Part shown: one piece after another, positions 1-55,561 of the stretch | Layout: each line of letters starts with the position of its first letter | How positions within the stretch are numbered: position 1 is the stretch's first letter | Source of the DNA: an uncultured Alphaproteobacteria bacterium | GTDB lineage: Bacteria; Pseudomonadota; Alphaproteobacteria; Sphingomonadales; Sphingomonadaceae | Direction of reading: 5' to 3' | DNA length: 64,000 bases | Assembly (NCBI GenBank): GCA_963703115.1 | Contig: OY969788.1 | Location: 855,265 to 919,264, forward strand | Made by a program: the position numbers and the translations under genes | Notes under the pieces: model-generated | What the model saw: only the letters and a program-made list of their open reading frames with translations | What the model was told of the DNA's origin: nothing | The model's database searches: none

Positions 1-369
1 CGGATCCTCAAGGTCGATTCGATCGCGCTCGCGCTGGGCATCGGCCCGGTCGCATTGATGATCGACGGCGGCGGACTTCAGCGACTGGATGCGGCATGGC
101 TGGGAAGCTGGATGGCCCAGCAACCCGCGTTGACCCTGCGCGCGGTGCCGCGTGGTCATGCCGCTTTTGGCCGCGCTGCCGGGACGGTCCGAGCGCAGGC
201 GCTGATCCCGATCCACTGCGGTTCGGGCCTGCCCAGCGGCCTGCTTGCGCTTGGCCAGCGCAAATCGATCGCGATCGAGGATTCGCACGGGGGCGAATTG
301 CTACGGTTCCTTGGCGACTCGCTTGGCGCTATCATCGCCCGGTGGCTGACCGAGACGAACCAGCGTTAA
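1..369 (+). CDS. DUF484-family protein, 3' part (5' end outside window)
   Basis: Frame 1 is open from nt 1 to TAA 367-369; the ORF track lists it only from 55. It lies directly upstream of and overlaps xerC, the usual DUF484-xerC arrangement in Alphaproteobacteria. The family call rests on context, not on a motif I can verify. Confidence 0.4.
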   Translation, partial: RILKVDSIALALGIGPVALMIDGGGLQRLDAAWLGSWMAQQPALTLRAVPRGHAAFGRAAGTVRAQALIPIHCGSGLPSGLLALGQRKSIAIEDSHGGELLRFLGDSLGAIIARWLTETNQR

Positions 370-12194: not shown

Positions 12195-14769
12195 CGCGTT
12201 CCACCGGCGGCGGGGGAGGCGGCGGGGGAGGCGGCGGTGCCATCTCCTGAACCGGTGCGGGCGGCGGCGGCGGCATCATGACCGGAGCCGGCGCCGGTGC
12301 CGCGAGCGAGCGGCCGAACATCTTCCGGACCGTCAGACCGATCGTCCGCGGCTGGCCGATATTGTAGGCGATCCGCGCCCGAAGCCCGCGCTCACGATCG
12401 AGCGAGAGGAGCGGGTTCTTGTCGAAGATATTATTCACATAGGCGATGACCTCGAGGCCATTGTCCCAGTGAAGCCCGCCCGACAGGTTGACGAGGCTGT
12501 ACGAAGGCAGCTTGAGCGAGCCGAAGTCGTTGACACCGCTGCCATAAGCCCCGGTGGCCGGGTCATAGAACAGCGCGCTCGAGACAAGGCCGGCACCCGT
12601 CTCTTGGTCGCTCGGCTGGGTATAACGACTGCCAAGGTGCTGGAAGCTTGCAGTCAGGTTCCAGTCAGTGGAATCGTTAAGTGGCCGCTCGTAAGTTGCC
12701 GTGGCAGCGAACTGGAACTTGGGCACGGTCGGCAGGCGATTGCCATCGCGAATCCCGCCGAGCACTGCGCCGGTTCCGGTCGTCACCGTGCTGTCGAACT
12801 TGGCGGACTGAACGGTCGTTGCAACCGAGAGGTTGAGGTCCGGCGTCGGACGAACGCCGAATTCCGCTTCGAGACCGGTCGAATGCGCCTTGGGCACATT
12901 GAACACGACGCGCGACGAACAGCTTCCGGCATCAAGCGTGACCTGAAGGTCCTTGATCGCGTTGTGGAACGCGGCTGCGTTGAAGTACATTGAGCGGCCA
13001 AGGCCGTACTTCATCCCCGCTTCGTAATTCCACAAAGTCTCGTCGTCATATTGCTGGTAGCCGCCGAAGATTTCGGCGTCAGCGGGCGTGCACAGCGGAA
13101 GGTTGAGCGGGTCATTGACACCCCCAAGACGGAAGCCCTTGGCCGCCTGGACGTTGAACGACAGCGCGCGGTTGGCCTCATAGGTCAGGATGACGCGTGG
13201 CGAAACGCCATTCGACTTGGTCTTGTCGCCAAGGTTCGTATTTCCGTCCGAGAAAATGCCGCCCGAGACGAAGTCACGCAATTCCTTGAAGTTGTAATAG
13301 CGTGCGCCGGCGGTCAGTTTGAACTGGCCAAACTGATAGCTTCCTTCGCCGAACAGTGCAGTCTGCTTGATGTCGTATGGAATATCGGCGTTGTACGGCG
13401 AATTCGCCGGGAAGCCGTTATAGGTCGCCGAAATCGGCAATCCACCTGCAGCGACGTCAAGGAACGCCTGGCCGAACGGGTCCGAACCCGGTGTCGGAAG
13501 ACGCTGCGCATAGGTCCGGTCGACTTTGGAGTAAAAGCCGCCGAACACCCACTGGAACGGTCCGGCGCCAGTCGAGGACAGGCGCAGTTCCTGGGTCCAT
13601 TGCTTGAGCTTGGTCGTGTCCCGAAGGTTCGAGTTGAGCGCCGCACCGCCGGCCGCATCAGGTGCTGCGCCTGCGAACGAGATATAGACCGAACCGGTCA
13701 GTGCCGAGGCATCGCGGCTGACGAGGATGTTGCGGTTGAGATAGCTCGACACGCTGGTCAGTTCGGCCCCGCCAAAGTCATAGGACATGACGAGGTCGGT
13801 AAGCAGTGTCTTGTCGCTGAACTTCTCACGGAAGCGAAGATACTGTTCGCGTTCACCAAGCGTGTTGCCACCGGTAGTGAATTGGTTGTCGAACAGGATA
13901 TATTCGTCCTGACGGTTGAACCCGCCGGCGGTGACCTTCTGATAAACTACCCGCGGAGTGATACGGAAGTTGTCACTCGGCTGGAGGAGCAGCGCGATGC
14001 GGGTGCCCCAGCGGTCGCCGTCATTGACGTTCTTCTTGCTGTACGGCCCGATGGAATCGATGAAGCCGCCAAAGTGCGTGTTATAGCCGACGACGCGAAG
14101 CGCGGCCCCTTGCCCGAAGGGAATGTTATAGGCGCCCTTCACCGAATAGCCGACGCCGCCGCCCTTGAGCATGTTGACGTTGCCTTCGACCGCGCCCTCG
14201 ACGCGATCGGTGGTCGGCTGGTTGGTGATGTAGCGCAACGTTCCGCCGACGCTGCCCGAACCGAACAGCGTGCCCTGCGGGCCGCGCAGGGTCTCGAGGC
14301 GGTTCAAGTCGAACAAGTCAAAGTCGGGCGTGAAGAGCGAAAGCGATGCAACAAATTCGTCGAGATAGACGCCGACCTGTTCCTTGACTCCCGGCTGATC
14401 GCGCACGATCTGGCCCGCCGAAACACCGCGTACCGAGACCTGGCTTTGGCCCGGCCCGAGGTTCTGGACCGTCAGGCTGGCGACGTTACGGCTGATATCC
14501 TCAAGTGTCTGGGCATTTGCGCGCTGGATGTCTTCCTGGGTCTGCGCGTTGATTGAAAACGGCACGTCCTGCACGCGGCTGGCGCGCTTGGTCGCGGTCA
14601 CGATGATCGCGTCTTCCTCAAACGACGACACCTCGTCGGCCGGCGGCGTGGTAGTATTGTCAGTGTCATTCGCCTCTTGGGCGATTGCTGCCTGCTCGGT
14701 TTGGGCGTGGGCCGGTACTGCCAGCGCGACAAGCGACGTGCCGACCAGCAAAGATGTGGTGATGCGCAT
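12178..14769 (-). CDS. TonB-dependent receptor with a 45-aa proline-rich C-terminal extension
   Basis: Signal peptide (MRITTSLLVGTSLVALAVPAHA), plug domain (IIVTATKR, ETLRGPQGTLFGSGSVGG), long beta-barrel. The canonical terminal strand ends RTIGLTVRKMF (Phe codon 12316-12318) and is followed by 45 more codons containing 11 consecutive Pro. Confidence 0.9.
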   Translation of the reverse strand: MRITTSLLVGTSLVALAVPAHAQTEQAAIAQEANDTDNTTTPPADEVSSFEEDAIIVTATKRASRVQDVPFSINAQTQEDIQRANAQTLEDISRNVASLTVQNLGPGQSQVSVRGVSAGQIVRDQPGVKEQVGVYLDEFVASLSLFTPDFDLFDLNRLETLRGPQGTLFGSGSVGGTLRYITNQPTTDRVEGAVEGNVNMLKGGGVGYSVKGAYNIPFGQGAALRVVGYNTHFGGFIDSIGPYSKKNVNDGDRWGTRIALLLQPSDNFRITPRVVYQKVTAGGFNRQDEYILFDNQFTTGGNTLGEREQYLRFREKFSDKTLLTDLVMSYDFGGAELTSVSSYLNRNILVSRDASALTGSVYISFAGAAPDAAGGAALNSNLRDTTKLKQWTQELRLSSTGAGPFQWVFGGFYSKVDRTYAQRLPTPGSDPFGQAFLDVAAGGLPISATYNGFPANSPYNADIPYDIKQTALFGEGSYQFGQFKLTAGARYYNFKELRDFVSGGIFSDGNTNLGDKTKSNGVSPRVILTYEANRALSFNVQAAKGFRLGGVNDPLNLPLCTPADAEIFGGYQQYDDETLWNYEAGMKYGLGRSMYFNAAAFHNAIKDLQVTLDAGSCSSRVVFNVPKAHSTGLEAEFGVRPTPDLNLSVATTVQSAKFDSTVTTGTGAVLGGIRDGNRLPTVPKFQFAATATYERPLNDSTDWNLTASFQHLGSRYTQPSDQETGAGLVSSALFYDPATGAYGSGVNDFGSLKLPSYSLVNLSGGLHWDNGLEVIAYVNNIFDKNPLLSLDRERGLRARIAYNIGQPRTIGLTVRKMFGRSLAAPAPAPVMMPPPPPAPVQEMAPPPPPPPPPPPVERGERGE

Positions 14770-34520: not shown

Positions 34521-34674
34521 TCGCGGTTAATCGCCTGACCAATGAAGCGCCCCGGGACCAAAGCGGCTCCGGGGCGCTTTTCCTTTGCGCCGCGCCCTTC
34601 TATATGGGCGCGGCTGCGGGGGCAGCCGCCTCCCACCAGTCACGAAGATTCGCCGTCAAAGGAGCCGATTCCCC

Positions 34675-35860
34675 ATGGCCATCACGCCACTCATGCCCGT
34701 CTATCCGCGTTCGCCGGTCCGCCCGGTAAGGGGCGAGGGAGTTTATCTGTATGGCGAGAATGGGGAGAAGTATCTCGACTTCGCAAGTGGCATTGCGGTC
34801 AATATCCTGGGTCATGGCCACCCGCACCTGACCAAGGCGATCCAGAAGCAGGCGGAGACGTTGATCCACGTCTCAAACCTATACGGAAGCCCGCAGGGGG
34901 AGCATTTCGCACAGCGCCTGGTCGACCTGACCTTTGCCGACACCGTTTTCTTCACCAATTCCGGCGCCGAGGCGGTGGAATGCGCGATCAAGACCGCGCG
35001 CCGCTATCATTTCGCCAAGGGCAAGCCCGAGAAGCACAACCTCATCACCTTTTCCAACGCCTTTCACGGGCGGACGATGGCGACGATCAGCGCGACCGAC
35101 CAGGCCAAGCTGCGCGAAGGTTTCGCGCCCTTGTTGACGGGCTTTACAGTGGTCCCTTTCAACGACCTCGACGCGGCGCTGAATGCGGTTGACGAACATA
35201 CTGCCGGGTTCCTGTTGGAGCCGGTGCAGGGTGAAGGCGGGATCATGCCCGCGACGAAGGAATTTCTCGCCGGTCTGCGTAAGGCGTGCGACGAAAAGGA
35301 TCTGATGCTGGTGTTCGACGAAGTGCAGTGCGGGGTCGCGCGCACGGGGCAACTTTACGCTTACGAGCATTATGGCATCGCGCCCGACATCATGGCGTCC
35401 GCCAAGGGCATCGGCGGCGGCTTCCCGCTTGGGCGCCTGCCTTGCGACCGAGAAGGCGGCGGCGGGAATGGTCGTCGGCACCCATGGCTCGACCTACGGC
35501 GGCAACCCGCTGGCGATGGCCGCGGGGGAAGCGGTGTTCGACATCGTCGCCGATGACGCGTTCCTGGCCGGGGTGCGCGAAAAGGGCGAGCGGCTGCGCA
35601 ACGCACTCGAACAGATGATCCCGAACCACGACAAGCTGTTCGATCACGTCCGCGGGCTCGGCCTGATGCTGGGGGTCAAGATGAAGACCGACCCGCGTGC
35701 CTTTGTCACCTATTTGCGAACCCGCGGGATCCTTGCGGTCGCGGCCGGCGATAGCGTTCTGCGCATCCTGCCGCCGTTGACGATCGAGGAATCGGACATT
35801 CGCGAGTTCGTTGACGGGCTGAGCAAGGCAGCGGCGGAATATGAGATTCCGCAGGCCTAA
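34675..35860 (+). pseudogene. argD: acetylornithine/succinyldiaminopimelate aminotransferase ArgD, frame broken by a 1-nt indel
   Basis: The N-part comes from the ATG at 34675 ([67 protein letters not shown]). The C-part is in ORF 35372..35860 ([31 protein letters not shown]). The frames join at GGG 35431-35433; one G fewer restores LGACLATEK. Confidence 0.88.
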
Positions 35861-41163: not shown

Positions 41164-42016
41164 CTATTTCCACCGCGCAAGCGGAGGCAGGCTCATCAGG
41201 ATTGCGTCGATGTTGCCGCCGGTCTTGAGGCCGAACAGGGTGCCGCGGTCGTAAAGCAGGTTGAACTCGACGTAGCGCCCGCGGAATTCCAGCAGTGAAT
41301 CCATGTCTTTTTCATCGAACGGCATGTCCATGCGCTTGCGGACCAGTTGCGGGTAGCATGTCGAGGAACGCTTCGCCGACCGCGCGAGTGAAGGCGAAAT
41401 GGGCGTCGAAATGGCCTTCGAGATGATCGTAGAAAATGCCCCCGACCCCGCGTGCCCGCTGGCGATGGGGTAGCCAGAAATAGTCCTCCGCCCACTTGGA
41501 AAACTTGGGATAGAAGGTCGGGTCGTGCGCAGCGCACGCTGCCCGCAAGCGCGCATGGAAGGCTTGCGTGTCTTCATCGTACGGGATCGCTGGATTCAGG
41601 TCCGCGCCGCCACCGAACCATCTTTTGGTGGTGCACAGGAACCGGGTGTTCATGTGGACTGCGGGGACATGCGGGTTGGCCATGTGGGCGACCAGGCTGA
41701 TACCGGTTGCAAAGAAGCGTGGGTCTTCAGCAGCGCCGTTGATCTGTGCCGCGAATTCGGGCGCGAAGCGGCCGCCAACGGTCGACACGTTGACCCCGAC
41801 TTTTTCGAACACTTTCCCGTTCATCTGGCCGCGCACGCCGCCACCGCCGGGCGAACCGTCGTCGGTCTCGCGCGCCCACGGCGTGTAAGTGAAGGCGGCT
41901 TTACTCCCAGCCTCGCGTTCGATTGCCTCGAACGCGGCACAGATCCGTTCGCGCAGGGTCTCGAACCAGTCGCGCGCTGCCTGCTGCTGCTCGTCCAACT
42001 CCAGTTTCTCGCTCAT
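41164..42016 (-). pseudogene. hemF: oxygen-dependent coproporphyrinogen III oxidase HemF, frame broken by a 1-nt indel
   Basis: The N-part is ORF 41312..42016 ([52 protein letters not shown]). The C-part is ORF 41164..41577 ([50 protein letters not shown]). The frames join at the plus-strand GGG 41351-41353. Confidence 0.88.
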
Positions 42017-43429: not shown

Positions 43430-43674
43430 GGAAACTTTACTGCTCAAAAAGGGAGCAAGTTTTTCTGAACCCGACGGTATGAGTGCATATGGCATGGCGA
43501 ATAGACTGGTATCGTTCGCCCTGCCGGTTACTTTTGCGCGCACTTGCTTTGTCCGAATTGCCTGCAAGGTCGAGTGAGCTGTGAGATCGTTATGATGCGT
43601 CTTGATCGAGATATAGTGACCATTAACGCCACTCTTTCTGCATTGCGTCGCGCGCTGGGACATTCGGCACAACA

Positions 43675-45339
43675 ATGAATTTCCGCAACATCCTAGAAAT
43701 TGCCGAGCGCTATCGCGCCGCGCTTCTGCGTTTGGCGCTGTTCGCGATAATTTCGTCCGCATCGGCACTGACCCTTCCCTGGTTTGCCGGGGAATTGTTC
43801 GGCACGGTGATTGATCGCGACGCTTCTACCTCGGTTGCAAGGCCGATAGGGTTGCTGGTTGCAGCACTGCTTGTGACGAGCATGTTCAGTGTCATCGCCG
43901 GGATCCAAACCGCGGTTCTTGAAATCCGGGTGCTGACCGATCTGCGCCAGCGAATTTTCGAACATGTCCAGCGACTTCCGATCGGTTTCCACGAGAATAG
44001 GGGTAAGGGAGATACGTTGGCGCTGATGACCTACGAGGTGGGGCATCTTTCGCATTATCTGACCGGGACCATGGCGCTTATTCCCGCCCGCCTTCTTACC
44101 GCAATTGGTGCAATCGCAGCCATGTTCTGGATCAATGCCCGGACGGCGCTGATCGTGCCCTTTCTTATTCCGGCCATTTACCTTTTTCTCAAAATCCTGG
44201 GTCGAAGCCTGCGGGGGGTGGCGGCAGCAATCCAGCATGCCGAAGCCGAGGTCGTCGAGGTTGCTGAGCAATCTCTGGACATTCTCCCGGCGACCAAAGC
44301 CTTCACTCGCGAGGTGATGGCAGCAGCGAATTATCGCGTCGTTACGGAGGAAGCCGCGCGGCTCTCGGTTAATCGCCGTCGGATTGAAGCAATGATCGAT
44401 CCCATGCTGGGGCTGATCGCTGCCGTCGCGTCAATTCTTGTATTGTTGACAGTCGGGCAGGGGTTGCGGGCGGGCAATCTGAATGTCGCCGAGCTTTTCA
44501 GCTTTCTGTTTTATGCGATGCTCCTGACCCGACCAGCAAGCGCATTGTCCCATATTTACGGAGAAACTCAGAACGCCTTGGGAACCAGCGCGCGAATGCA
44601 ATCGGTACTCGAACAATCGGTTGAGCAGATGCGGACGACGAAAAATAGCCGGCGTGCACAAGGCAAGATCGTGTTCGAAAACATCTCGTTCGCTTATCCC
44701 GGGCGGGACAGCCTGTTACGCAACCTCGACCTTGAAATTTCCCCCGGTGAGAAGATCGCGATCGTCGGGCCGAACGGTTCGGGCAAGACCGCGCTCGTCA
44801 ATCTGCTTTTGCGATATTACGAGCCGGACGGGGGGAGAATTCTCCTCGATGATACTGACATTCGCGATTATGGCTTCGCCGACTTGCGGCAGCAAATCGG
44901 GCTGGTTCCGCAAACGCCCCTGCTGTTCAATTCGACGATCCGGGACAATGTGTGCTTCGGCTCGCCAGATGCGTCGCCCGTCGATCTCAACCGCGTTCTC
45001 CAGCTGGCCCAGGCCAAGAAATTTATCGACGACCTTCCAAAAGGGCTCGAGACGACCATCGGCGACCGGGGCGTTCGTTTGTCAGGGGGACAGAAGCAGC
45101 GCCTCGCGCTGGCCCGCGCCTTGATCAAGGACCCTCCGATTCTGATCCTCGATGAAGCGACCTCCATGTTCGATCTGGGTGGGGAAGTCGCGCTGGTTGC
45201 CGGCATCGAAAAGGCGATCAAGGGCCGCACAGTAATCTTTATCACTCACCGCCTGATGTTGCTCGACCTCGCCGACCGTATTTTCGAAATTAATGACGGG
45301 AAGCTGGTGGACATTGGGAAACAGAGAACTCGAAGTTGA
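43675..45339 (+). CDS. ABC exporter, fused permease-ATPase (McjD/MsbA type); candidate lasso-peptide D protein
   Basis: 554 aa: six-TM domain, then Walker A GPNGSGKT, ABC signature LSGGQKQRLALARAL and Walker B ILILDEATS. There is no N-terminal C39 peptidase domain. It is the first gene of the lower-GC island. Confidence 0.88.
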   Translation: MNFRNILEIAERYRAALLRLALFAIISSASALTLPWFAGELFGTVIDRDASTSVARPIGLLVAALLVTSMFSVIAGIQTAVLEIRVLTDLRQRIFEHVQRLPIGFHENRGKGDTLALMTYEVGHLSHYLTGTMALIPARLLTAIGAIAAMFWINARTALIVPFLIPAIYLFLKILGRSLRGVAAAIQHAEAEVVEVAEQSLDILPATKAFTREVMAAANYRVVTEEAARLSVNRRRIEAMIDPMLGLIAAVASILVLLTVGQGLRAGNLNVAELFSFLFYAMLLTRPASALSHIYGETQNALGTSARMQSVLEQSVEQMRTTKNSRRAQGKIVFENISFAYPGRDSLLRNLDLEISPGEKIAIVGPNGSGKTALVNLLLRYYEPDGGRILLDDTDIRDYGFADLRQQIGLVPQTPLLFNSTIRDNVCFGSPDASPVDLNRVLQLAQAKKFIDDLPKGLETTIGDRGVRLSGGQKQRLALARALIKDPPILILDEATSMFDLGGEVALVAGIEKAIKGRTVIFITHRLMLLDLADRIFEINDGKLVDIGKQRTRS

Positions 45340-45464
45340 GCCGGGGGATTGAGATGCGCCCTATTCGCATTTCGACGAACTTCACGAGCGCAAGCTCCGC
45401 ATAATTCCAGATTGCCACCGCGCGCCGGTGGGGATGTCTCCAGCAGAGTGAGGAGAAAAAGAGC

Positions 45465-47354
45465 TTGAGCGGAGTGGCAGCCATTATCCGATTTGACGGT
45501 GGTGAGGTTGAACCCGGCTTGATCGAAAAAATCACGGCGGCGATGAGTTATCGGGGCTGTGACGGGATACGTCACCTTTCGCGCGGATCCATCGCGTTAG
45601 GTCATTGCATGTTACACACGACCAAGGAGTCGCTGGAAGAAACTCAGCCGCTTTGCAATGAGGACGAAAGCTTGATGCTGGTCATGGATGGCTGGCTCAG
45701 CAATTGGACTGAACTTCGCTCCGAACTGATTGCTCGAGGATCGCATTTACGCACGCGCTCCGACGCTGAACTTGTACTGCGTGCCTACGAAGTCTGGGGT
45801 GAGGATTGCCCACAGCATATCGACGGCGAGTTCGCTTTCGTCATCTGGGACCAGAACCGTCGCGAAGCGTTCGTAGCCGGCGATCACGTCGGTTTAAAAC
45901 CACTGCATTATCACTGGGATGGCCGCCAACTTGTCGTTGCCTCCGACATTGTGGGCGTGTTGGCGATGCCGGGTTTTTCACGCGAACCAAACCTGGCGCG
46001 AATATCGGAATATCTTAAATTCGAATGGGGCACGCGTGGGCAGACAATCTGGAAGGGCGTGTCTCGCGCCGTTCCCGCACACTCGATGCGATTTAGAAAC
46101 GGCCATTGCGAGAGCAGGAAATATTGGGAACCGCCGCTTGAAACCACCATTTTCTATAAGCGCGACGAGGAATATTTCGAACACTACCGGCACCTTTTTA
46201 CCGAATGCGTCCGCAGAGCATCGCGAACGCACAAGCCGCTTGCTTGCGACGTCAGCGGCGGGCTGGATTCCTCAGCTGTTTTTGCAATGGCTCATGAACT
46301 GCGGCGCAAGGGGACCCTGCCCGCACCTGGGGTCAAGGGCTACACCTATTTTTTCAAAGATGCCGAAGGCACCGAACACGACGAGATTGAATATGCGCGT
46401 GCGACCGCACGACACCTGGGGGTAGCTCTTAAAGAGGTCCCGCCTTTCCTTCCCGATATGCAGTGGTTTCTGGAGCGCGGGCGGATGGACTGTGACATCG
46501 CCGGCTATCCTAACGGAGCAATGTCGATCGCCATTGGCAAAACCCTGGTCGCCGATGGCTGCCGCGTGAGTTTGAACGGCGAGGGCGGCGATGAATTCTT
46601 GGCTGGAACTCGATTTTACTTCGCTGAGCAGCTCGCGGCGCGCGAGTGGGGCAAGTTATCGCAGACCTTTATCGAAGATACGGCCGAAATCGGTCTACGA
46701 AAAACGGCCTGGAACCTGTTGCGTTTCGGGCTTGCTCCGATGTTGCCGGTCCCGGTTTTGGAGGTGCTCCGCAATCTTCGGGAACGCCGACGGATAGGCG
46801 AGTTGGACAAAGCTGCCTGGATCAAAGCGGAATTGAGGAACTCGGCGAATCTAAAGGGATTGAGGCCTGGTCATGAACTAATGCAATTGGCCAAGTCGGC
46901 TCGTCGCTGCAAACATCTGGTCCTGAATGATCCCTTTGCGCTGGTGGTTTGGGACCAGTTCTCACGACAAAGTGCCAGAGTTGGCTACGAAATTCGCACT
47001 CCAATGTACGCAAGAGAATTCATCGACTTCTCCTTTGCCACGCCCGAGCGGATCAGGCTTCGGGGAGAGCGCCGGAAATTTATTCATGTCAGAGCGCTTG
47101 AGGGATTGCTTCCCGAAGTCGTGGCCAATCGAAAAACCAAGGCAGACTTCGGAATTGCCTTTACCCGCCTTCTTGAAATGGTGAAGAGTCATTTAATGGA
47201 TGCGGTAGATGGGGATGGTTCCGACTACCTAGACAAGAAAGGGCTCGCACGATTGTTCGAGCGGCAGCAGGCGGAGCCGGACGATTTCCGGTTGGTCTGG
47301 CATGTGTGGACGCTTTTCGAATTGAATGATATTTTGATGCAAAATGAGAATTAA
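45465..47354 (+). CDS. asparagine-synthetase-like protein lacking the Cys nucleophile; candidate lasso cyclase (C protein)
   Basis: 629 aa with a TTG start preceded by GAGGAG. The N-terminus is MSGVAAI rather than MCG. AsnB fold motifs are present (LGHCMLH, SDAELVL, GEFAFVIWD, GLKPLHY) together with the ATP-PPase loop DVSGGLDSSAVFAM. Confidence 0.8.
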   Translation: MSGVAAIIRFDGGEVEPGLIEKITAAMSYRGCDGIRHLSRGSIALGHCMLHTTKESLEETQPLCNEDESLMLVMDGWLSNWTELRSELIARGSHLRTRSDAELVLRAYEVWGEDCPQHIDGEFAFVIWDQNRREAFVAGDHVGLKPLHYHWDGRQLVVASDIVGVLAMPGFSREPNLARISEYLKFEWGTRGQTIWKGVSRAVPAHSMRFRNGHCESRKYWEPPLETTIFYKRDEEYFEHYRHLFTECVRRASRTHKPLACDVSGGLDSSAVFAMAHELRRKGTLPAPGVKGYTYFFKDAEGTEHDEIEYARATARHLGVALKEVPPFLPDMQWFLERGRMDCDIAGYPNGAMSIAIGKTLVADGCRVSLNGEGGDEFLAGTRFYFAEQLAAREWGKLSQTFIEDTAEIGLRKTAWNLLRFGLAPMLPVPVLEVLRNLRERRRIGELDKAAWIKAELRNSANLKGLRPGHELMQLAKSARRCKHLVLNDPFALVVWDQFSRQSARVGYEIRTPMYAREFIDFSFATPERIRLRGERRKFIHVRALEGLLPEVVANRKTKADFGIAFTRLLEMVKSHLMDAVDGDGSDYLDKKGLARLFERQQAEPDDFRLVWHVWTLFELNDILMQNEN

Positions 47355-47376
47355 CCCATTTAGACCGAGGTGAAGC

Positions 47377-47779
47377 TTGCCGAGCGAAAAGAGCGCAGTT
47401 GCGAATGAACCTGGCGCCAAGCCCGACAAAGCGAATGTCGGGACGAAGCTGGAATATGAAACTCCGACACTGACAATTTATGGTTCAGTCAGGGAACTAA
47501 CGGGGTCAGGGTCAGGCGGGTCTTCCGATGGTGGCATGCCCATGGCCGTCGTCGGATTCTGCTGTAAAAGAACATGTCGTGCGGGTCGGGGACCATCCGG
47601 CCGGCTTCGGGATATACCTGTTCGATTACAAGCCGGAGTTCCGCAACTCATTTGGTCATGGTCGACAATTTGGCGTCATCGCAGATGAAGTTGAGCGGGT
47701 TGTCCCCGAGGCCGTCACCATTGGCAGCGATGGCTACAGGCGGGTTTGCTACAGCTTGCTTGGGATCGAACGACAGTGA
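47377..47779 (+). CDS. lasso-type RiPP precursor (YxxPxLx3Gx5TxG leader), apparently continuing across a 1-nt frame break into a peptidase-S74 autoprocessing domain
   Basis: Frame A starts at the TTG at 47377 (GAGGTG 5 nt upstream) and reads MPSEKSAVANEPGAKPDKANVGTKLEYETPTLTIYGSVRELTG|SGSGGSSDGGM.... Frame B is open from 47501 to TGA 47777-47779 and reads ...PWPSSDSAVKEHVVRVGDHPAGFGIYLFDYKPEFRNSFGHGRQFGVIADEVERVVPEAVTIGSDGYRRVCYSLLG, the S74/CIMCD pattern with S-D-x-x-x-K. Deleting one C of the CCC run 47539-47541 fuses them into a 133-aa protein. Confidence 0.6.
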
Positions 47780-47817
47780 TCCAAACGCTTCTCGATTAAT
47801 ATCATTGGTCCCCTGTT

Positions 47818-48942
47818 TTGCTGACAACGCTGGAAGAGCATCACGGCTATCTCTCTGACGAGAGGCGCCTTGAGAGATTCCGCGAAGCAATTGGCCATGC
47901 GGTTCGGCCGGGTGATCTTGTCGCCGACGTTGGCTGCGGTTTCGGGATACTTGGACTGATGTGCCTTCAGGCGGGCGCCTCTAGAGTATGGGGGATCGAC
48001 CGAACGGACGCGATTGAAATTGCCCGGGAGAGCTTGGGTCGCGCGGGTTTTGGCGACCGCTACACCTGCATTCGTGATCATTCGTCCCGGGTGATCTTGC
48101 CAGAAATGGTTGATGTCATCGTCTGCGATAACGTCGGTTATTTCGGGATAGATTACGGCATCGTCGAAACACTGGCCGACGCTCGTCGCCGTTTCCTCAA
48201 ACCAGGCGGCCGGATAGTGCCCAGCCGGATCAGGCTGATGCTGGCCGGGGTTGCTTCGCCAGAATGCCGCGGCAAGGCAGAAGGCTGGGACGATCCGCGC
48301 GTACCCGACGAATATCATTGGCTGCGCGAATTCGGGGTCAATTCGAAATTTGCGCACATGTTTGAAACGGATGAAATCGCTACCGAGTCTCTCATCGTCG
48401 GCACGATTGATCTCAATACGGACAGCCCAGACACATTTTCATGCCAAGTGTCCCTGACTGCCACTCAAGACGCTGTACTGGATGGGCTCGGTGGGTGGTT
48501 CGAGTGCGAGCTGTCGCCGGACAATTGGATGACGAATTCACCGCTTGCGCACGATCAAATCGACAGGCCACAAATCTTTCTGCCTTTCGATACGCCGATC
48601 ACTGTTGGCGCGGGTGACAGTGTAGAAGTTTCAATCGTTGTTCGCCATGATGCGCACCTGTTCGCTTGGAGCGTGCGAGACCCCCGGACGGGCGTAAAGC
48701 AGAAACAATCTACTTGGCGAAGTCGCATTCTGGCTGAATCCGATCTGTCTCCGAAGTCTGATCGGCCATTGCAACTTAGTGCCGAAGGCCATGCGCGCAG
48801 CATTATTTGCGACTATGTCGACGGCAATCGCAGTGCGCGGCAAATTGAGGATGCCGTTTTGTCCGATCATCCCGATTTACTCCCGTCGTCCGAAGAAATC
48901 CGCCGATTTGTGGGAAAAGAATTGGCCCGGAACGCTCGATGA
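47818..48942 (+). CDS. PRMT-fold class I SAM methyltransferase with C-terminal PqqD-like (RRE) extension
   Basis: LEEHHGYLSDERRLERFREAIGHAVRPGDLVADVGCGFGILGLMCLQAGASRVWGIDRTD matches the protein arginine methyltransferase signature and SAM motif I. GGWFECELS...NSPLAH...QIFLPFDTPITVGAGDSV resembles the PRMT beta-barrel. The last ~70 aa (ARSIICDYVDGNRSARQIEDAVLSDHPDLLPSSEEIRRFVGKEL) look PqqD-like. Confidence 0.7.
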   Translation: MLTTLEEHHGYLSDERRLERFREAIGHAVRPGDLVADVGCGFGILGLMCLQAGASRVWGIDRTDAIEIARESLGRAGFGDRYTCIRDHSSRVILPEMVDVIVCDNVGYFGIDYGIVETLADARRRFLKPGGRIVPSRIRLMLAGVASPECRGKAEGWDDPRVPDEYHWLREFGVNSKFAHMFETDEIATESLIVGTIDLNTDSPDTFSCQVSLTATQDAVLDGLGGWFECELSPDNWMTNSPLAHDQIDRPQIFLPFDTPITVGAGDSVEVSIVVRHDAHLFAWSVRDPRTGVKQKQSTWRSRILAESDLSPKSDRPLQLSAEGHARSIICDYVDGNRSARQIEDAVLSDHPDLLPSSEEIRRFVGKELARNAR

Positions 48943-49799
48943 TCTTTCATCTGGAGCAATTGGCCGCAAAGCCGCAAGGTGAGATCGAAGACAGTCCATA
49001 TGACCGCTGGCTGAGCGTCGAAGGCCAGGACGTCGCGCTATTTTACCGTACGGACCAAAGCTTTTTGGTGCGGTTCCAGGATAAGGCAGATTTTGAATTA
49101 TCTGTCGGTAGGGGGGTCGTCACCTGCACGCCGGCGCCTGACGTTTCGGGTCAAACGACGATCGATCTGTTTCACAACCAGGTGATCCCCCTACTTCTCA
49201 ATCATCAGGGCGAATTGGTGCTCCATGGAAGCGCTGTTGCTGGAAGCACTGGCGCCCTGGGTTTCATCGGGCAATCGGGCAGCGGCAAGTCAACGATTGC
49301 AGCCTATTTTGCGAAGGCAGGCCATCCGTTCATGACCGACGATGGCCTGTTTTTGAAGGAAGCGGGATCCGCATATAACGTTGAACCTTATCGTCCCTAC
49401 CTGCGTCTTTGGTCTGACAGCAATCAAGCGGTGCTTGGCCGGAAGCCTCCCACCGCGGAGGAGGGAGAAGACAACAAAACACTGATCGATGCCGGGCCAT
49501 CACTTCCATTTCAGGAGACGCCGTTGCCGCTGGCTGCGCTATATCTTCTAGGCAGTAGGGAGGTGGAGAAGGTTTCGGTCGAACGCATGAAGCCCGACCT
49601 GGCGCTATTGGCGTTGCTAAAGCACTCCTTCATCCTTGATGTGGACGATCGCCAACGGTTGAAAGCCCATTTCGAACGTTTGGCAAAGCTGTCGGAAGCA
49701 ATTCTATGCTTCACTCTCGAATATCCGCGGGATTATGGGGTGTTCCCCGAGTTGATCCCCACGGTTCTTAACCACGCGTCATCGGAAGGTGTCTTATGA
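48939..49799 (+). CDS. HPr-kinase-related serine kinase (RiPP/lasso tailoring kinase type)
   Basis: 286 aa with an ATGA overlap with the methyltransferase gene. VLHGSAVAGSTGALGFIGQSGSGKSTIAAYFAKAGHPFMTDDGLF matches the HprK C-terminal P-loop region (Walker A at 49269-49295). Confidence 0.75.
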   Translation: MIFHLEQLAAKPQGEIEDSPYDRWLSVEGQDVALFYRTDQSFLVRFQDKADFELSVGRGVVTCTPAPDVSGQTTIDLFHNQVIPLLLNHQGELVLHGSAVAGSTGALGFIGQSGSGKSTIAAYFAKAGHPFMTDDGLFLKEAGSAYNVEPYRPYLRLWSDSNQAVLGRKPPTAEEGEDNKTLIDAGPSLPFQETPLPLAALYLLGSREVEKVSVERMKPDLALLALLKHSFILDVDDRQRLKAHFERLAKLSEAILCFTLEYPRDYGVFPELIPTVLNHASSEGVL

Positions 49800-50080
49800 A
49801 TTTAACCGACAAGATGGTCGCCTCGGACGAAGTCGTCGCTCGTGACGTGGGAGGCGAAACTGTCCTTCTGAATCTCGCGAGTGGCACCTATTTCGGTCTC
49901 AACTCGGTCGGTGCGCGAATTTGGACCATCGTCGAAAATGACGAAAACTTAAGCATGTCGCAAGTTTGCGACACCTTAGCGAATGAATTTGATGTCTCGC
50001 GTCAGCAGTTAGAGGGCGATGTACTGAACCTTGCGACTGAACTCGTCGAACAAAAGCTTGTCGTCATCAAGGAAGAATAG
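49796..50080 (+). CDS. PqqD-family protein (lasso B1 / RiPP recognition element)
   Basis: 94 aa with an ATGA overlap with the kinase gene. VVARDVGGETVLLNLASGTYFGLNSVGARIWTIVENDENLSMSQVCDTLANEFDVSRQQLEGDVLNLATELVEQKLV is a textbook PqqD pattern. Confidence 0.85.
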   Translation: MNLTDKMVASDEVVARDVGGETVLLNLASGTYFGLNSVGARIWTIVENDENLSMSQVCDTLANEFDVSRQQLEGDVLNLATELVEQKLVVIKEE

Positions 50081-50123
50081 ACTGTTTCGCATCACGGCAA
50101 AATAACATCATCTGATCGTCAAA

Positions 50124-50966
50124 TCAGAGTATCTGGCTGACGTCACTTAGCTCGCTCAATTCAGGAATACCGAATAGCTCGGCCCATGTTTTCGGCTGGC
50201 ATAGGTCGGAAGTCCCCACCGGGATGTAATGAAGGAACAGCAGGTCACAAAATTGCCGACCAGGGTTGCGAGGCAGCGGTTCACGGAAATGCCACTGATT
50301 GGTACCGGAAAATAAAACCGCGTCTCCCGGCTGCAAGACCTCCTGCGTAAAGCGCATTTTCGGGTCCGATGGCACGGCGTTAAAGTCGACGCTCTCCAGT
50401 TCGGACCTTGTTTCGGGCCATGGTACAGGGCGGCTGAAGCTGATTGGCCACGGGTCACTTTGGTCGATGCAAATGTCGAGCGTCCATTTTGCCGAAGGAG
50501 CATCAAGATGGGGCCGACATACGCCGCGGCCAGTATACAGGCTCAAGAAATTGTAGCTCGGCTCAACCAACTCGCCGGCGAGTTCGGACACTGCTTCAAC
50601 TAGTCGGGATTGCAGTTCGGTGAAGGGCGGCCAGCGATGAACAATAAAGCGGCCGAACTCTTCAGCTTCGGTCAGATTGAGGGATTCGCGGGGGATCTTC
50701 CTGATCGTGTCCCGGATTTCGTCCAGCTGCAATTCGCTCAGGAAGTCGGACACAAACCGCTGGGTGAAGTCCGGTGCTATGCGCAAGGGATCGAAGCTGC
50801 GTTCAAACTCCTGCAGGCGAGCGGGTGCAACACGCGCAATGATTTCTTTCGCCTCGATATATTTTGTCAGCCAGATCGAATCATACCAGCGCTTTTCCCG
50901 CGCAATCGGGTTTGAGCCCTGTTTCCTAGCGGCTGTCAGCACTTTGATCCGTCCATTTTCGTTCAC
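50124..50966 (-). CDS. putative Fe(II)/2-oxoglutarate-dependent oxygenase
   Basis: 280 aa. LSLYTGRGVCRPHLDAPSAKWTLDICI carries an HxD (His153/Asp155). LQPGDAVLFSGTNQWHFREP carries a distal His226. The spacing fits the 2-His-1-carboxylate facial triad of a cupin. This is motif-level evidence only. Confidence 0.45.
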   Translation of the reverse strand: MNENGRIKVLTAARKQGSNPIAREKRWYDSIWLTKYIEAKEIIARVAPARLQEFERSFDPLRIAPDFTQRFVSDFLSELQLDEIRDTIRKIPRESLNLTEAEEFGRFIVHRWPPFTELQSRLVEAVSELAGELVEPSYNFLSLYTGRGVCRPHLDAPSAKWTLDICIDQSDPWPISFSRPVPWPETRSELESVDFNAVPSDPKMRFTQEVLQPGDAVLFSGTNQWHFREPLPRNPGRQFCDLLFLHYIPVGTSDLCQPKTWAELFGIPELSELSDVSQIL

Positions 50967-51025
50967 TTAAACAGATTTCGAGTCGCCCTCACTGCTTGTT
51001 TTCCGATGCAGGAGCCAATTCGAAT

Positions 51026-52192
51026 TCAATTCTTCACCCGATCAGGGCGACTGCGAAGCAGGTCGATAATACGCCTGACATATAGCGCCGCTAATGGAAA
51101 ATTTTGCATGCTCGGATATTTTCCGCGCAGGAAATTCGCAGGAGGAAGTGTCCGTTGAGCCAGAAATCTGACTTTGTTGCGAAGCCCTTTCACAGCTTTC
51201 AGATCCTGTAGCGCCCGACCTGCCTGGCCCAGTTCAAGCAGATAGATAGAGGGACCGGACGCAGAAGCGGGTGCCTGGCCTAGGCGCTCCATCACGCCTG
51301 ACGATACAACAGTATCGAAGTGGCTCATCGCGAACTTCAAACCATCGAGGCAAACCGGCGCCAGTTCCATTCGAATGGCGGTCTCGCAAAACGCGCTCCA
51401 CTCTGCTTGCGAAAGTGCACCGGCAAGGAGGTGAATATCATAGGCCCAGATCAGCCGGTCGCCGCCATAATAAGTCACACCGTCGACCATGTATGGACTG
51501 GTGATATGGGTGGCGCGATGCATGGACGCATGGATCAGCATTGTCGCGCGATCCATCGTGAAGGCATTGTCGTCGAGGAGCGGCAGGACTCGCTTGTTCG
51601 CGGCGCAATCAGCGAAAACAAGCGTTTGGCGAAGCGCCATCGAATTCATCGCTTGCCAGTGGAGATCGATGACATGGTTAGTCCCATCCCCTGAAGCGAA
51701 GTTCCAGATTTCCTGGAGTTCAAGATCGTCGGATCTTCCAGCGCACGGCGGGGCCAAGCAAAAGCCGCATTTGGCGAGCGCAAGCCGGGTCTGTTCCAAC
51801 TCCTCCCGCTTTACCAAAAGGTCGGTGTCTCCACGTGCGCGAGTGGCGGGTTTCGCGTAAAGATCGTAGGCTAAAGCGGTGCCTTTCAGGATAAGGGATT
51901 TGATCCCATTTTGACGAAGTTCGGCAAGAAGCCGTGTGAGCATTTGTCTATGACGGACTTCCCACATTTCCTGCGCGATTGCCTGCTGGTGCAAGCGTTC
52001 GAACACTTCCTTGGGCCATCCAATCGGCCGGCCTTCGATCAGCAGGCCAGCGATGCCATGATAGAGCGCGCGATCAACAACGGCCGCCCAAGTCGATGCG
52101 TGATTCCAATGATCCGGCCAGGCGGTACAGCAATTGCCCAACGTTCTTGAAAAGAACCGATCGATTGAATCGCTCAAATTGGCCATTGCCAT
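51026..52192 (-). CDS. NTP_transf_5-type uncharacterised nucleotidyltransferase
   Basis: 388 aa. GIKSLILKGTALAYDLYAKPATRARGDTDLLVKREE and HVIDLHW fit the family that accompanies HprK-like kinases and PqqD proteins in kinase-containing lasso clusters. Confidence 0.65.
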   Translation of the reverse strand: MAMANLSDSIDRFFSRTLGNCCTAWPDHWNHASTWAAVVDRALYHGIAGLLIEGRPIGWPKEVFERLHQQAIAQEMWEVRHRQMLTRLLAELRQNGIKSLILKGTALAYDLYAKPATRARGDTDLLVKREELEQTRLALAKCGFCLAPPCAGRSDDLELQEIWNFASGDGTNHVIDLHWQAMNSMALRQTLVFADCAANKRVLPLLDDNAFTMDRATMLIHASMHRATHITSPYMVDGVTYYGGDRLIWAYDIHLLAGALSQAEWSAFCETAIRMELAPVCLDGLKFAMSHFDTVVSSGVMERLGQAPASASGPSIYLLELGQAGRALQDLKAVKGLRNKVRFLAQRTLPPANFLRGKYPSMQNFPLAALYVRRIIDLLRSRPDRVKN

Positions 52193-52397
52193 TGATTACT
52201 GGGGCCGGATTGACCACCCGTCAATTTGTGGACCACTTCGCTGGATCACCGGACATCCTTCTTGACGGTCAGCCCTCCGACCACCGCCGAAGCGGACGGA
52301 CTACGCAGGTGCGAAGCCGAGGCTTGGAAAAATTTTGTCCTTGGGGACTGTTCACTATCACGCCGCGAGGCCAAGGTAGCGGTCAGATGCGTCCAGC

Positions 52398-53519
52398 ATG
52401 CACGCGTTGGCAGGCCGGGATTGCAGCAATGCGCGACCTGCTATTTCCAGGAGCCGGAGGAAGTCGAGTTTGTTCCCCTATTTCCTCCTTTTGACTTACT
52501 TCGGCTTAGGGGCGCTCGCGACCCCCCAGGCGTCGAGTGAACCGCGCCGCGGTTTCCAGCCGATCTTCTTGTTCGGGATTTTGCTGATCGTGGTGATGGT
52601 GGGCCTGCGCTATCGCGTTGGCGCGGACTGGGGAAATTACCTGCGCATCTACCAGACGTTCGGACGATTAAGTTTCGAATCGGCGGTCGGTAGAGGTGAA
52701 GCGGGCTACATGTTCTTCAACTGGCTCGGCTATCAATGGCGGACCGGCATCTGGCTTCCCAACCTGGTTTGCGCAGCGATCTTCGGGTTCGGGCTTGCAA
52801 GATTATGCCGCATCCAGCCCAACCCCATGCTGGCAGCGACCATTGCGATCCCGTATCTCACCGTGGTGGTGGCGATGGGATACACCCGGCAAAGCGCCGC
52901 GATCGGTTTCGCAATGTGGGCGATTGCCGACATGATCAAGCGCCAGTCGATCATCCGGTTCTTTTTCATCCTGGCCTTGGGGGCGTTGTTCCACAAATCG
53001 GTCGTCGTGGTCGCGGCATTCGTGCTGATGACAGGTGAGAAGAACCGCCTCCTTAAAGGGCTGGTTTCAGCCGTCCTGATCGTCGTGCTGTTCCAGTTTT
53101 TCCTCCAGGACTCGCTCGACAAGTACAAGACCAACTACCTCGATGCCCGCTACCAGTCGCAAGGCGCAGCAATCCGGGTGGCGATCGACGGCTTGGCAGC
53201 GATTATCTTCTTCCTGATGAACAAAGACATGCGATTTAGCGTCATCGAGCGCCAGTTGTGGCGCAATTTTTCGATCGTTTCGCTGATCATGTTGGTCGCC
53301 TTGCTAGTGACCCCGTCCTCGACCGCGATCGATCGGCTTTCGCTCTATCTCGTGCCCTTGCAGATCGCGGTCTTCGCACAGGTTCCCTATGTGCGAGGCG
53401 GGCGTCAGGGCGGTGTGGCGGGAGTGGTCGTCTATTCGGCCCTGGTGCTGACAGTATGGCTGCTGTTTGCAGTTCATGCCCGGGCGTGGCTTCCGTACCG
53501 AATGATCGTCTTCACATGA
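52398..53519 (+). CDS. EpsG-family polysaccharide polymerase-like membrane protein (start uncertain)
   Basis: A polytopic membrane ORF with GLRYRVGADWGNYLRIY near the N-terminus, as in EpsG/O-antigen polymerase-like proteins. An internal TTG near 52467 may be the real start. Confidence 0.7.
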   Translation: MHALAGRDCSNARPAISRSRRKSSLFPYFLLLTYFGLGALATPQASSEPRRGFQPIFLFGILLIVVMVGLRYRVGADWGNYLRIYQTFGRLSFESAVGRGEAGYMFFNWLGYQWRTGIWLPNLVCAAIFGFGLARLCRIQPNPMLAATIAIPYLTVVVAMGYTRQSAAIGFAMWAIADMIKRQSIIRFFFILALGALFHKSVVVVAAFVLMTGEKNRLLKGLVSAVLIVVLFQFFLQDSLDKYKTNYLDARYQSQGAAIRVAIDGLAAIIFFLMNKDMRFSVIERQLWRNFSIVSLIMLVALLVTPSSTAIDRLSLYLVPLQIAVFAQVPYVRGGRQGGVAGVVVYSALVLTVWLLFAVHARAWLPYRMIVFT

Positions 53520-53589
53520 TCGCGGCCGCCCCGACTGTGTGGTCACGAGGTCGCGGTCGCATGGATGTTACCGGCCAGGCGACAGGCTG

Positions 53590-55561
53590 ATGTGCGGAAT
53601 AGCGGGAATATTGGGGGAAGGGCGCGCGCGACCCCTCGCTCATTGCGGCGATGACCGCGCGGATCAACCATCGCGGGCCCGACGACCAGGGATTATGGAG
53701 CGATCACGCGGCCGGGATTGCGCTGGGCCACCGCCGTCTTGCAGTGATCGACCTGTCACCCGCAGGCTTTGAGCCGATGCACTCGGCGAGCGGGCGATTC
53801 ACGATCAGCTTCAACGGTGAAATCTACAATTACCAGGACCTTCGCGACGTCCTAGAGTCAGGCGGGGAAGCGCCTAAGACCGGTTGGCGCGGCCATAGCG
53901 ATGTCGAAGTGTTCCTTGAGGCGTTGGAGCGTTGGGGAATTGAACGGGCACTGTCAGCCGCAGTGGGCATGTTCGCCTTCGCCTTGTGGGATAACAAGGA
54001 ACGAAAATTGTGCCTGGTGCGCGACCGCTTTGGGGAAAAGCCGCTTTATTACGGCTGGGCAGGCAGGGACCTTGTTTTCGCCTCGGAACTGAAATCGCTG
54101 GTTGCCCATCCCCGCTTTGAGCGCCTGCTTAACCGCGACGCGCTGGATGCATATTTGCGGCACAACTATGTGCCTGCGCCAGCGAGCATCTATCGTCACG
54201 CATTCAAGCTGCAACCTGGCACGATCCTGACCCTGGCGCCGGGGGTCGGGCAAATGGCCGAGGCTCCAGCTGTGGGCGAAGCGGGCAAGCATTGGTCTCT
54301 CGACGCATATTACGATTATCGCGCGACCGTCTCAAAGGGTGCCGCCGACAGCTTTAGCGATCATGGCGAAGCGCTCGACGCCCTTGAAGATGTGCTGGAA
54401 CGGGCGGTCGGCGACCAGGCGGTTGCCGATGTCCCGGTGGGGGCCTTCCTGTCGGGCGGGATCGACAGTTCGACGATTACCGCGCTGTACCAGCGCCAGA
54501 CTGCGCATCCGGTGCGCACCTTTTCGATCGGATTCAACGAAGACCGCTACAACGAGGCGGTCCATGCCAAGCGTGTCGCAGCGCACCTTGGGACCGTCCA
54601 TGACGAGCTTTACGTTACCGATGCACAAGCGCGCGAGGTCATTCCCCTGCTGCCGGATATGTACGATGAACCGTTCGCGGATTCCTCGCAGATCCCGACC
54701 TTCATCGTCAGCCGGTTCGCGCGCCAGCAGGTCACCGTTGCACTGACCGGCGATGGCGGGGACGAGATGTTCGCTGGCTATAATCGCCACCTTCTGGTTC
54801 CGCGATGGCGACGGCGCCTGAGCCGGCTTCCGTCGGTACTGCGCAGGCCCGGCGGGGCACTGGCGGCCCGAGTCCCTGGACGCCTGGTCGAACTTGCTGC
54901 GCGGTCGATCGGTGCAAGCGACCCGCGCCAGGCCGCAGCGAAGATGCGCAAGGGACTGGCGCTTGCTGCCGGGGCGAAATCGCTGCCCGCCGTCCTGGAA
55001 GGGCTGCTTGATAACTGGGCCTTGCGCGGTGACATCGTCGATGATGCCGACTCGCGGCACGAGCCCGACCTGGACTTTGGAGCGGCAACCGGGGAAGCAG
55101 AGAAACTCGCCGCTTACGATGCACTGACCTACTTACCCGACGACATCCTTGCCAAGGTCGACCGGGCGTCGATGGCAGTTGGGCTGGAAACGCGGGTGCC
55201 ATTCCTGGACCACCGGGTGGCGGCGGTCGCGGCGCGCATTCCAGGACATATGAAAATCCGTGGCGGGAAGGGGAAGGTGATCTTGCGCGATTTGCTCTCC
55301 CGCCACGTGCCACAGGAATTGCTCGACCGCCCCAAGGCCGGCTTCGCGGTCCCGGTTTCCCAGTGGTTGCAGGGTCCCTTAAGGGACTGGGCAGAGGACC
55401 TTCTTTCGCCCACGGCGCTCGCCGAAGCCGGGGTCCTTAATGTCAAAGCGATCCGAAATCGATGGCTTGCACACGCCAGGGGCAGCGAAGACGCGGCCAA
55501 TGCCATATGGGCGGTGCTGATGTTTCAGGCGTGGCGCCGAGAGTGGAATCCGACGATTTAG
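53590..55561 (+). pseudogene. asnB: asparagine synthase (glutamine-hydrolysing) family amidotransferase, frame broken by a 1-nt indel
   Basis: The ATG at 53590 gives MCGIAGILG, with the Cys2 nucleophile. The rest is in ORF 53651..55561 (INHRGPDDQGLW, GHRRLAVIDLS, FNGEIYNY, SGGIDSS). The frames join at the G5 run 53613-53617; G4 would read ILGKGAADPSLIAAM. Confidence 0.88.

Follow-up and report, generated by a model that had tools for sequence, protein, structure and literature searches.

What is a self-cleaving chaperone domain of the kind found in phage tail proteins doing directly behind a lasso-type precursor peptide, and why does the reading frame break between the two? These questions are raised by a locus at positions 47,377 to 47,779 of a 64,000-nucleotide stretch of DNA from an uncultured alphaproteobacterium of the Sphingomonadaceae (assembly GCA_963703115.1, contig OY969788.1, positions 855,265 to 919,264). 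We call this whole stretch the window, and coordinates refer to it unless another locus is named. We propose that the locus probably belongs to a conserved family of lasso precursors built as leader, core and peptidase S74 domain, in which the S74 domain would remove itself and thereby set the C-terminus of the core.

The first part of the locus lies in frame 1 of the plus strand. A Shine-Dalgarno (SD) sequence, GAGGTG at 47367-72, stands upstream of a TTG start at 47377, and the open reading frame (ORF) that begins there runs to 47688, overlapping frame 2; its product is MPSEKSAVANEPGAKPDKANVGTKLEYETPTLTIYGSVRELTG followed by SGSGGSSDGGMPMAV and by 46 residues that are similar to nothing. The leader peptide (47377..47505, 43 amino acids) contains Y27-x-x-P30-x-L32 and has T42 at position -2. 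NCBIfam model NF033521 (lasso_leader_L3) matches frame-1 residues 27-44 with 25.2 bits (cutoff 19), the TbiA leader (5v1v) is a weak profile match in a PDB search, and residues Y27, P30, L32, G36 and T42 are conserved in alignments of the family described below. The core peptide (47506..47550) reads SGSGGSSD(8)GGMPMAV, with Ser at position 1 and Asp at position 8, and is identical at 12 of 12 positions to that of the homologue P0001, GGSSDGGMPMAV; the frame break leaves its final one to three residues uncertain. The lasso-type leader and core that the initial annotation had recognised in frame 1 are thus borne out. Frame 2 opens at 47501, straight after a TAA at 47498-47500, and closes at the TGA 47777-47779; its translation spans PWPSSDSAVKEH to LLGIERQ, with a junction that reads ...PWPS-SDSAVKEHVVRVGDHPAGFGIYLFDYKPEF..., exactly as described initially for this overlapping frame.

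The second part of the locus, on the same strand in frame 2 (47552..47779, 75 amino acids and a stop), carries a peptidase S74, or intramolecular-chaperone autoprocessing (ICA), domain. When the reading was run against Pfam, PF13884 (Peptidase_S74) matched over its full length, profile positions 1-58 of 58, with the match starting at the Ser (E 3.4e-7, 30.9 bits, cutoff 22), so that the match is far above chance and the S74 assignment stands. The predicted dyad consists of Ser TCG 47552-54 as the nucleophile and Lys AAA 47567-69 as the general base. A profile of the family retrieved the MYRF ICA domain (7dc3, E 3.6e-4) and the fibre chaperone of phage T5 (6f45, E 0.016) from PDB, and in the profile alignment the S-D-x-x-x-K of the family falls in register with the dyad positions of MYRF 7dc3, in agreement with the spacing noted initially. 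We take the catalytic dyads to be Ser587 and Lys592 in MYRF and Ser911 and Lys916 in endoNF. An AlphaFold2 (AF2) model of the intact homologue P0001 reached a predicted local distance difference test (pLDDT) score of ~90 over the S74 domain, with leader and core disordered at pLDDT ~50, and the search of BFVD with this model returned phage proteins named 'intramolecular chaperone auto-processing domain' and 'endosialidase chaperone', down to E 2.7e-7. The window's S74 domain departs from the family at just two of 34 conserved columns, both times conservatively, and shows no decay.

Further evidence comes from other genomes. A search with the reconstructed 133-residue leader-core-S74 protein as the query found 186 homologues, nearly all 121-146 amino acids long and covering 80-100% of the fused query, for which the NCBI annotation is 'tail fiber domain-containing protein'. 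Among the results is the window's own product, an 83-residue ORF, P0002. Species-representative genomes contributed 79 loci, mostly from Sphingomonadales, Burkholderiales, Thiobacillaceae, Competibacteraceae and Lysobacterales, with single ones in Mesorhizobium, Cyanobium, Acidobacteriota and others. Metagenomes contributed 80 loci, and all 80 match from the leader through the S74 domain as one tblastn segment. Altogether, the census covered 205 S74 copies in 163 loci, and 189 of the copies share their frame with a lasso leader. Isolate genomes with the in-frame fusion include the complete chromosome of Parablastomonas sp. CN1-191 (L035, NZ_CP186480.1), two Aurantiacibacter, Mesorhizobium ventifaucium and a Cyanobium, and when 1.84 billion cluster representatives were searched exhaustively with a profile, 81 clusters (50% identity) matched at E up to 1e-30.

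The setting of these genes is equally constant. Among 36 well-flanked loci, defined as those with at least 7 kb on both sides, an AsnB-like cyclase gene is present in 35 (directly upstream on the same strand in 34), a PqqD gene in 35 and a gene for a P-loop protein in 35; a methyltransferase gene occurs in 30, an NTP_transf_5 gene in 29, a gene for the leader peptidase B2 in 28 and, within 8 kb, an ABC transporter gene in 23. B2 was found in 57 of 81 related loci, and the copy in locus L001 passes NCBIfam NF033537. The search for fused lasso-leader/S74 precursors elsewhere, which the initial annotation had called for, therefore returned them in abundance beside cyclase and PqqD genes: in a large conserved family encoded alongside genes of lasso biosynthesis, leader, core and S74 domain normally stand in one frame.

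The anatomy of the family was derived from 162 unique in-frame precursors. Their leaders follow Y-x-x-P-x-L...G...T(-2)-x. Position 1 of the core is G in 73, S in 43, A in 24 and N in 15, and G, S, A, N and T together account for 159; an Asp or Glu at core position 7-9 is present in all 162, at position 8 in 139, at position 9 in 15 and at 7/8 or 8/9 in 8. Core length ranges from 14 to 38 residues with a mode of 16-18 and a second group of 24-26 residues that has exactly two Cys; overall, 124 cores have no Cys and 38 have exactly two. These cores resemble lasso cores in their primary structure. The residue at the nucleophile position is Ser in 158 of 162 and Cys in 3, and Lys follows five residues on in 161. 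Cys was found at this position in L042 (2068), L061 (10136), L135 (1301) and L161 (896), and Thr in a frame-broken relative, L082 (457; GCA_030154725.1, JALYEJ010067961.1), and in well-aligned copies the position is never held by a non-nucleophilic residue. The residue before the predicted cut is variable (among others A 29, G 24, P 20, M 16 and S 12, n=162).

Natural variants mark the same bond. Short precursors that lack the S74 domain share loci with fused ones, have homologous leaders and cores and end where the Ser would be, for example a short ...NINRQRTC followed by a stop beside a fused ...RLTRRPCA-SD (the hyphen before SD marks the predicted cut, here and below). Such short precursors were found in L022 (6686-), L112 (2689-), L142 (1063-), L106 (3117-), L131 (663-) and L133 (189-), and further ones in L050/L038, L009 (391-) and L154 (2780-); the last residue of the short paralogues is C, N, M, T, Q, F or G. 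In three unrelated lineages, apparently known from short-read assemblies, a stop stands in place of the Ser codon, with the S74 sequence intact downstream: TAG in L005 (8231-8233), TGA in L106 (5633-5635) and TAA in L110 (1711-1713), L113 (5055-5057) and L115 (1542-1544), which carry one allele in three samples. The interrupted copy is the sole one in L005 and lies beside intact tandem copies in L106 and in L110/L113/L115. At the 34 conserved columns, interrupted S74 copies show 0-3 departures and intact copies 1.3 on average, a difference that is not significant, and a polymorphism test of the TAA allele was uninformative, the precursor genes of L110, L113 and L115 being without differences. 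That natural truncations and short paralogues end at this point speaks for the bond before the Ser as the functional C-terminal limit of the peptide, and for a core that can function without the S74 domain. The truncated and short forms therefore suggest that the domain is a removed accessory that was lost repeatedly in evolution.

The proposed pathway starts from what is observed at these loci: the domain identities, the in-frame fusion across the family, the conserved catalytic residues and neighbourhood, and the place where the frame breaks. As in canonical lasso biosynthesis, PqqD would bind the YxxPxL leader, the B2 peptidase would cut the leader after T(-2)-x, and the AsnB-like cyclase would join the new N-terminus to Asp8 to form an 8-residue ring; the product would have lasso topology. 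By analogy with the chemistry of the S74/ICA domains of endosialidases and MYRF, the 75-residue S74 domain would fold, probably as a trimer, its Ser would attack the preceding carbonyl, the Ser-Lys dyad would cut the bond just before the Ser, and the resulting ester would be hydrolysed. Self-cleavage would free a core with a defined C-terminus, and the S74 domain would be discarded as a built-in, traceless follower or stabilising tag. A plausible benefit of the domain is that it stabilises or solubilises a small Gly/Ser-rich peptide, protects its tail or provides a trimer-based scaffold. In the window, one extra base would have split this single gene into two overlapping frames.

Frame analysis and alignment of the DNA to the in-frame locus L081 and to L082 confine the extra base to a zone at 47539..47554 on the plus strand, within which any one-base deletion restores the frame. 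The initial annotation had placed it in the CCC run 47539-41. Dropping one C there does join leader, core and S74 domain into a continuous protein of 133 amino acids, and the errors of this assembly favour G/C runs, a point for that site. The CCC run is nevertheless disfavoured as the place of the extra base, and with it the junction MPWPS-SD, by the in-frame locus L081, which has ATGCCCATGGC, an 11-mer with the CCC included, identical to the window and reads MPMAV-SD; P0003 reads MPMA-SD, and the core frame of L082 reads MPMAA. Because L081 shares ATGCCCATGGC and the three closest relatives read MPMA(V/A/-), the extra base more probably lies at ~47546-47553, which would give MPMAV-SD or MPMAS-SD.

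The cause of the break may lie in the assembly, which appears indel-prone. In at least four other conserved genes of the window, a single-base error at or beside a G/C run has broken the frame: a XerC/D-like integrase (96-1276, plus strand, break at the C5 run 1003-1007), a class-III aminotransferase (34585-35860, plus strand, break at ggg 35431-33), hemF (41164-42016, minus strand, break at ccc 41351-53) and a second asparagine synthetase, AsnB (53587-55561, plus strand), in which the start, MCGIAGILG (53590 onward), lies in another frame than 53651-55561. The same class of error had been claimed initially for eight other genes, and for these four we could verify it as single-base breaks at G/C runs. 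A Logan contig (ERR11523665, L163) corresponds to window positions 48737-50264, is 99.74% identical and gap-free, and ends short of the precursor. We infer that an assembly indel is slightly more likely than a real mutation, and we hold an assembly error to be the cause with somewhat better than even confidence.

Several observations weigh against the reading of the locus as a self-cleaving precursor split by a sequencing error. The Foldseek search of the P0001 model against solved structures gave 7dc3 as its best match with an E of only 0.17, and the trimeric beta-helix or fibre that is the usual substrate of an S74 chaperone is absent upstream, where a 43-residue leader and a core of ~15 residues stand instead. 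The window's copy of the pathway may be incomplete, because no gene for the transglutaminase-like leader peptidase B2 was detected in its 64 kb by tblastn and by an iterated hidden Markov model (HMM) built from 57 relatives, in six frames at E <=10. The near-universal kinase-like P-loop protein is not accounted for by this reading, because a C-terminal Ser is not conserved. As for the frame break, L082 is the window's closest relative (80% amino-acid identity over the S74 domain) and carries one extra base between the same two codons (GCA-A-ACT in L082, GTC-G-TCG in the window), a coincidence that would be odd if the window's offset were a mere sequencing error. Offsets of +1 a few nucleotides upstream of the Ser/Thr codon occur in L082 (~440-460), in the second copy of L001 (~6520-6532) and in L069 (~12500-12533), and random errors would not account for such clustering at the junction.

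These offsets speak for a genuine frameshift, in which the core would have been uncoupled from the S74 domain at the natural cleavage point, either as one more case of recurrent follower loss or in a recently dead precursor. We regard this as a serious possibility, at appreciably less than even strength. It would accord with the recurring interruptions at the junction, the Ser-to-stop alleles of L005, L110/L113/L115 and L106 as well as the offsets of L082, L001 copy 2 and L069, with the short precursors present within the same loci and with the core frame of L082, which stops one codon past the junction (...MPMAAN and a stop). A random assembly error inside one 16-nucleotide zone is a priori rare, and the cluster in the window also lacks B2. 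Against it, the window's core frame runs through 46 out-of-frame codons to 47688 and would yield an implausible product, and the assembly demonstrably contains single-base frame errors in housekeeping genes. L001 and L069 appear, from their contig and bin names, to be long-read assemblies, and metagenome-assembled genomes (MAGs) of the same series have frameshifts or stops elsewhere in these genes. The window's S74 domain is also fully intact, and comparison with L082 gives a synonymous divergence (dS) of 1.28, a non-synonymous divergence (dN) of 0.124 and a ratio (omega) of 0.10, close to the omega of 0.11 of the adjacent methyltransferase. An omega of 0.10 at a dS of 1.28 therefore excludes a shared, long-standing pseudogene, and the offsets of the window and L082 must be recent and independent, or errors, or, least likely of these, maintained.

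Frameshifts within the S74 domain itself were observed in L071 (9900-10340) and L077 (~10113-10343), at one shared profile position and, in L071, with several further breaks in the core. Both loci come from apparently long-read MAGs as judged by their names, and the frameshifts have the look of assembly errors.

An alternative that concerns the function of the family is that the S74 domain is retained, for trimerisation, for docking or as a carrier, which would make the product a small protein capped by a lasso. Trimerisation modules of the S74 kind are obligate ones, and work from the Link laboratory reportedly found that cyclases tolerate artificial C-terminal protein fusions to lasso peptides. 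The near-invariance of the Ser, Cys or Thr nucleophile and of the Lys five residues after it speaks against a domain that is kept, as do the natural truncations and short paralogues that end precisely at the predicted scissile bond, and we therefore judge this alternative unlikely.

It is slightly more doubtful still that the offset is a maintained state, inherited in common by the lineages of the window and L082, with the S74 domain expressed, by recoding or separate translation, from a gene split at just the bond that the domain would otherwise cleave; were this so, the offset and the Ser-to-stop alleles would point to cells that alternate between lasso precursors with and without the fused domain. 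The specific form of programmed +1 frameshifting, or of selected separate translation of the S74 domain, raised initially as an alternative, is very improbable as an explanation of the frameshift. It would fit two offsets of the same direction and inter-codon position at a dS of ~1.3 between the genes, and a purifying selection on the S74 domain as strong as that on the methyltransferase. Direct reading, however, revealed no site for slippage or re-pairing, neither GCC GTC G TCG in the window nor GCA A ACT in L082 being one, and in 47530-47560 and in L082 there is neither a conserved stall codon, the TGA following in L082 only, nor a start codon or SD sequence conserved ahead of the S74 frame. 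The core-frame products are wholly different, with a tail of 46 residues in the window and of one in L082, and ~92% of the family members need no recoding. Finally, a chance phage tail-fibre remnant beside an unrelated lasso cluster, which the NCBI name of the homologues might suggest, is refuted by the comparative data, as the same small protein directly follows the cyclase gene in 34 of the 36 well-flanked loci, across several phyla, and its S74 domain always follows a lasso leader and core in frame with no fibre shaft.

Further genes of the cluster lie on both sides of the precursor. Upstream on the plus strand lie an ABC exporter with fused permease and ATPase (43675..45339, Pfam ABC_membrane and ABC_tran), likely the lasso 'D' transporter, and the AsnB-like homologue of lasso cyclases, 'C' (45465..47354, Pfam Asn_synthase and GATase_7). 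The latter begins with MSG and not MCG, and the NCBIfam model that scores it highest is NF033535, for the isopeptide bond-forming cyclase of lasso peptides, with 316 bits, under the cutoff of 525. Downstream on the same strand follow a PrmA/PRMT-like methyltransferase dependent on S-adenosylmethionine (SAM) (47818..48942, Pfam PrmA, Methyltransf_25 and, weakly, PRMT_C), the P-loop protein (48939..49799) and a PqqD-family recognition element, lasso 'B1' (49796..50080), of the kind that serves peptides made by ribosomes and modified after translation (RiPPs). The PqqD protein matches Pfam PqqD at E 3.4e-16 (59.8 bits, cutoff 23.4), and its best NCBIfam match is lasso_PqqD with 61 bits (cutoff 80). 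On the minus strand lie a conserved 280-residue protein of unknown function (50124..50966), with no match in Pfam or NCBIfam and with orthologues in 9 of the 36 loci, mainly of Sphingomonadales, and an NTP_transf_5 nucleotidyltransferase (51026..52192, PF14907, E 2.3e-29). The block from 43.5 to 52.5 kb has a GC content of 53-56% against 60-63% on either side, and this low-GC island (43500-52500) suggests horizontal acquisition. A B2 gene was also not found within 10 kb in L023, L043 and L045, Aurantiacibacter-type loci with intact precursors; for these and for the window B2 may sit elsewhere in the genome, or a different protease may serve.

Two unusual gene arrangements were observed among related sequences. 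P0141 (746 amino acids) is a possible in-frame fusion of a cyclase to an S74-type precursor, and one ORF of L079 (9943-12576) matches both B2 and an ABC transporter, a possible gene fusion.

The P-loop protein is weakly related to HprK-related kinases. It matches TIGR04352 with 31.7 bits (cutoff 200), around the P-loop only, and TIGR04355 with 24.2 bits, also far under cutoff; its L001 orthologue gives a weak Pfam ScmC match, and a search of PDB found no kinase match beyond the P-loop similarity. The initial annotation had seen in a C-terminal Ser of the released core the residue for an HprK-like kinase, as the kinases of the paeninodin and SyanK type act on the C-terminal Ser of lasso precursors (PMC8498205). 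The family statistics rule this handle out: the residue before the cut is Ser in just 12 of the 162 precursors, none of the residues that end the short paralogues is Ser, and in the window the residue before the cut would be Val or Ser. The kinase clusters of Firmicutes (paeninodin, ThcoK) and of Sphingobium yanoikuyae (SyanK) resemble the present ones in the P-loop, HprK-related gene beside the lasso genes, in an NTP_transf_5-type nucleotidyltransferase that often adjoins, and in their occurrence in Sphingomonadales among other taxa; their precursors are short and end in the phosphorylated Ser (PMC8498205), whereas those of our family have a variable C-terminus followed by a predicted self-cleaving domain.

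Compared with the split-B lasso clusters (A, B1/PqqD, B2, C and D; NCBIfam NF0335xx), the family shares the YxxPxL leader, Thr at -2, a core that begins with a small residue and has Asp or Glu at 7-9, the AsnB-like homologue of lasso cyclases, the PqqD recognition element, the ABC exporter and, in the relatives only, B2, which the window itself lacks. It differs in its precursor of 120-145 amino acids, in which the core is followed by a folded S74 domain of 75 residues, whereas known lasso precursors end at the core. Compared with the S74/ICA domains of endoNF, T5 pb1 and MYRF, it has the same Pfam family, the S-x4-K in the register of MYRF, the C-terminal place and the predicted fold, and a cut directly before the Ser would be expected by analogy. 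Unlike theirs, its cargo is a disordered peptide of ~17 residues and not a trimeric beta-helical fibre that needs a chaperone, its context is a cellular RiPP cluster and not a virion protein or membrane-tethered transcription factor, and it includes variants with Cys and Thr as nucleophile. As in RiPPs with followers (the recognition sequences of bottromycin and cyanobactins) and in inteins and the Hedgehog C-terminal domain, a C-terminal extension must go; the first step would likely be an N-to-O (or N-to-S) acyl shift at Ser or Cys, whereas the followers known from RiPPs are short, and separate proteases remove them.

By its sequence the family would thus qualify both as a split-B lasso system and as an S74 autoprotease. 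We know of no RiPP precursor that carries its own autoproteolytic domain, and of no S74 domain that stands behind a short disordered peptide in place of a trimeric fibre. A search of the literature on lasso peptides together with S74, endosialidase, intramolecular chaperone, tail fiber or autoprocessing, with subscription-only literature outside its reach, found no earlier description of a lasso precursor with an S74 domain, in line with the initial view of this architecture as new. If self-cleavage holds, an autoproteolytic follower built into a RiPP precursor would be known for the first time, and the precursor would be a rare use of the intramolecular-chaperone protease of phages and MYRF outside fibres and the release of transcription factors. 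It would also offer a natural, traceless, self-removing fusion tag for peptide expression, and open a large untapped set of lasso cores whose C-termini can be predicted exactly. The finding would explain why clusters so widespread among proteobacteria (81 at 50% identity, hundreds of loci) have escaped genome mining for lasso peptides: such mining seeks precursors that are short, and the NCBI name of the present proteins is 'tail fiber domain-containing protein'. For the family itself, the fused, stop-at-junction and short forms that stand side by side would amount to a natural experiment on the gain and loss of a domain.

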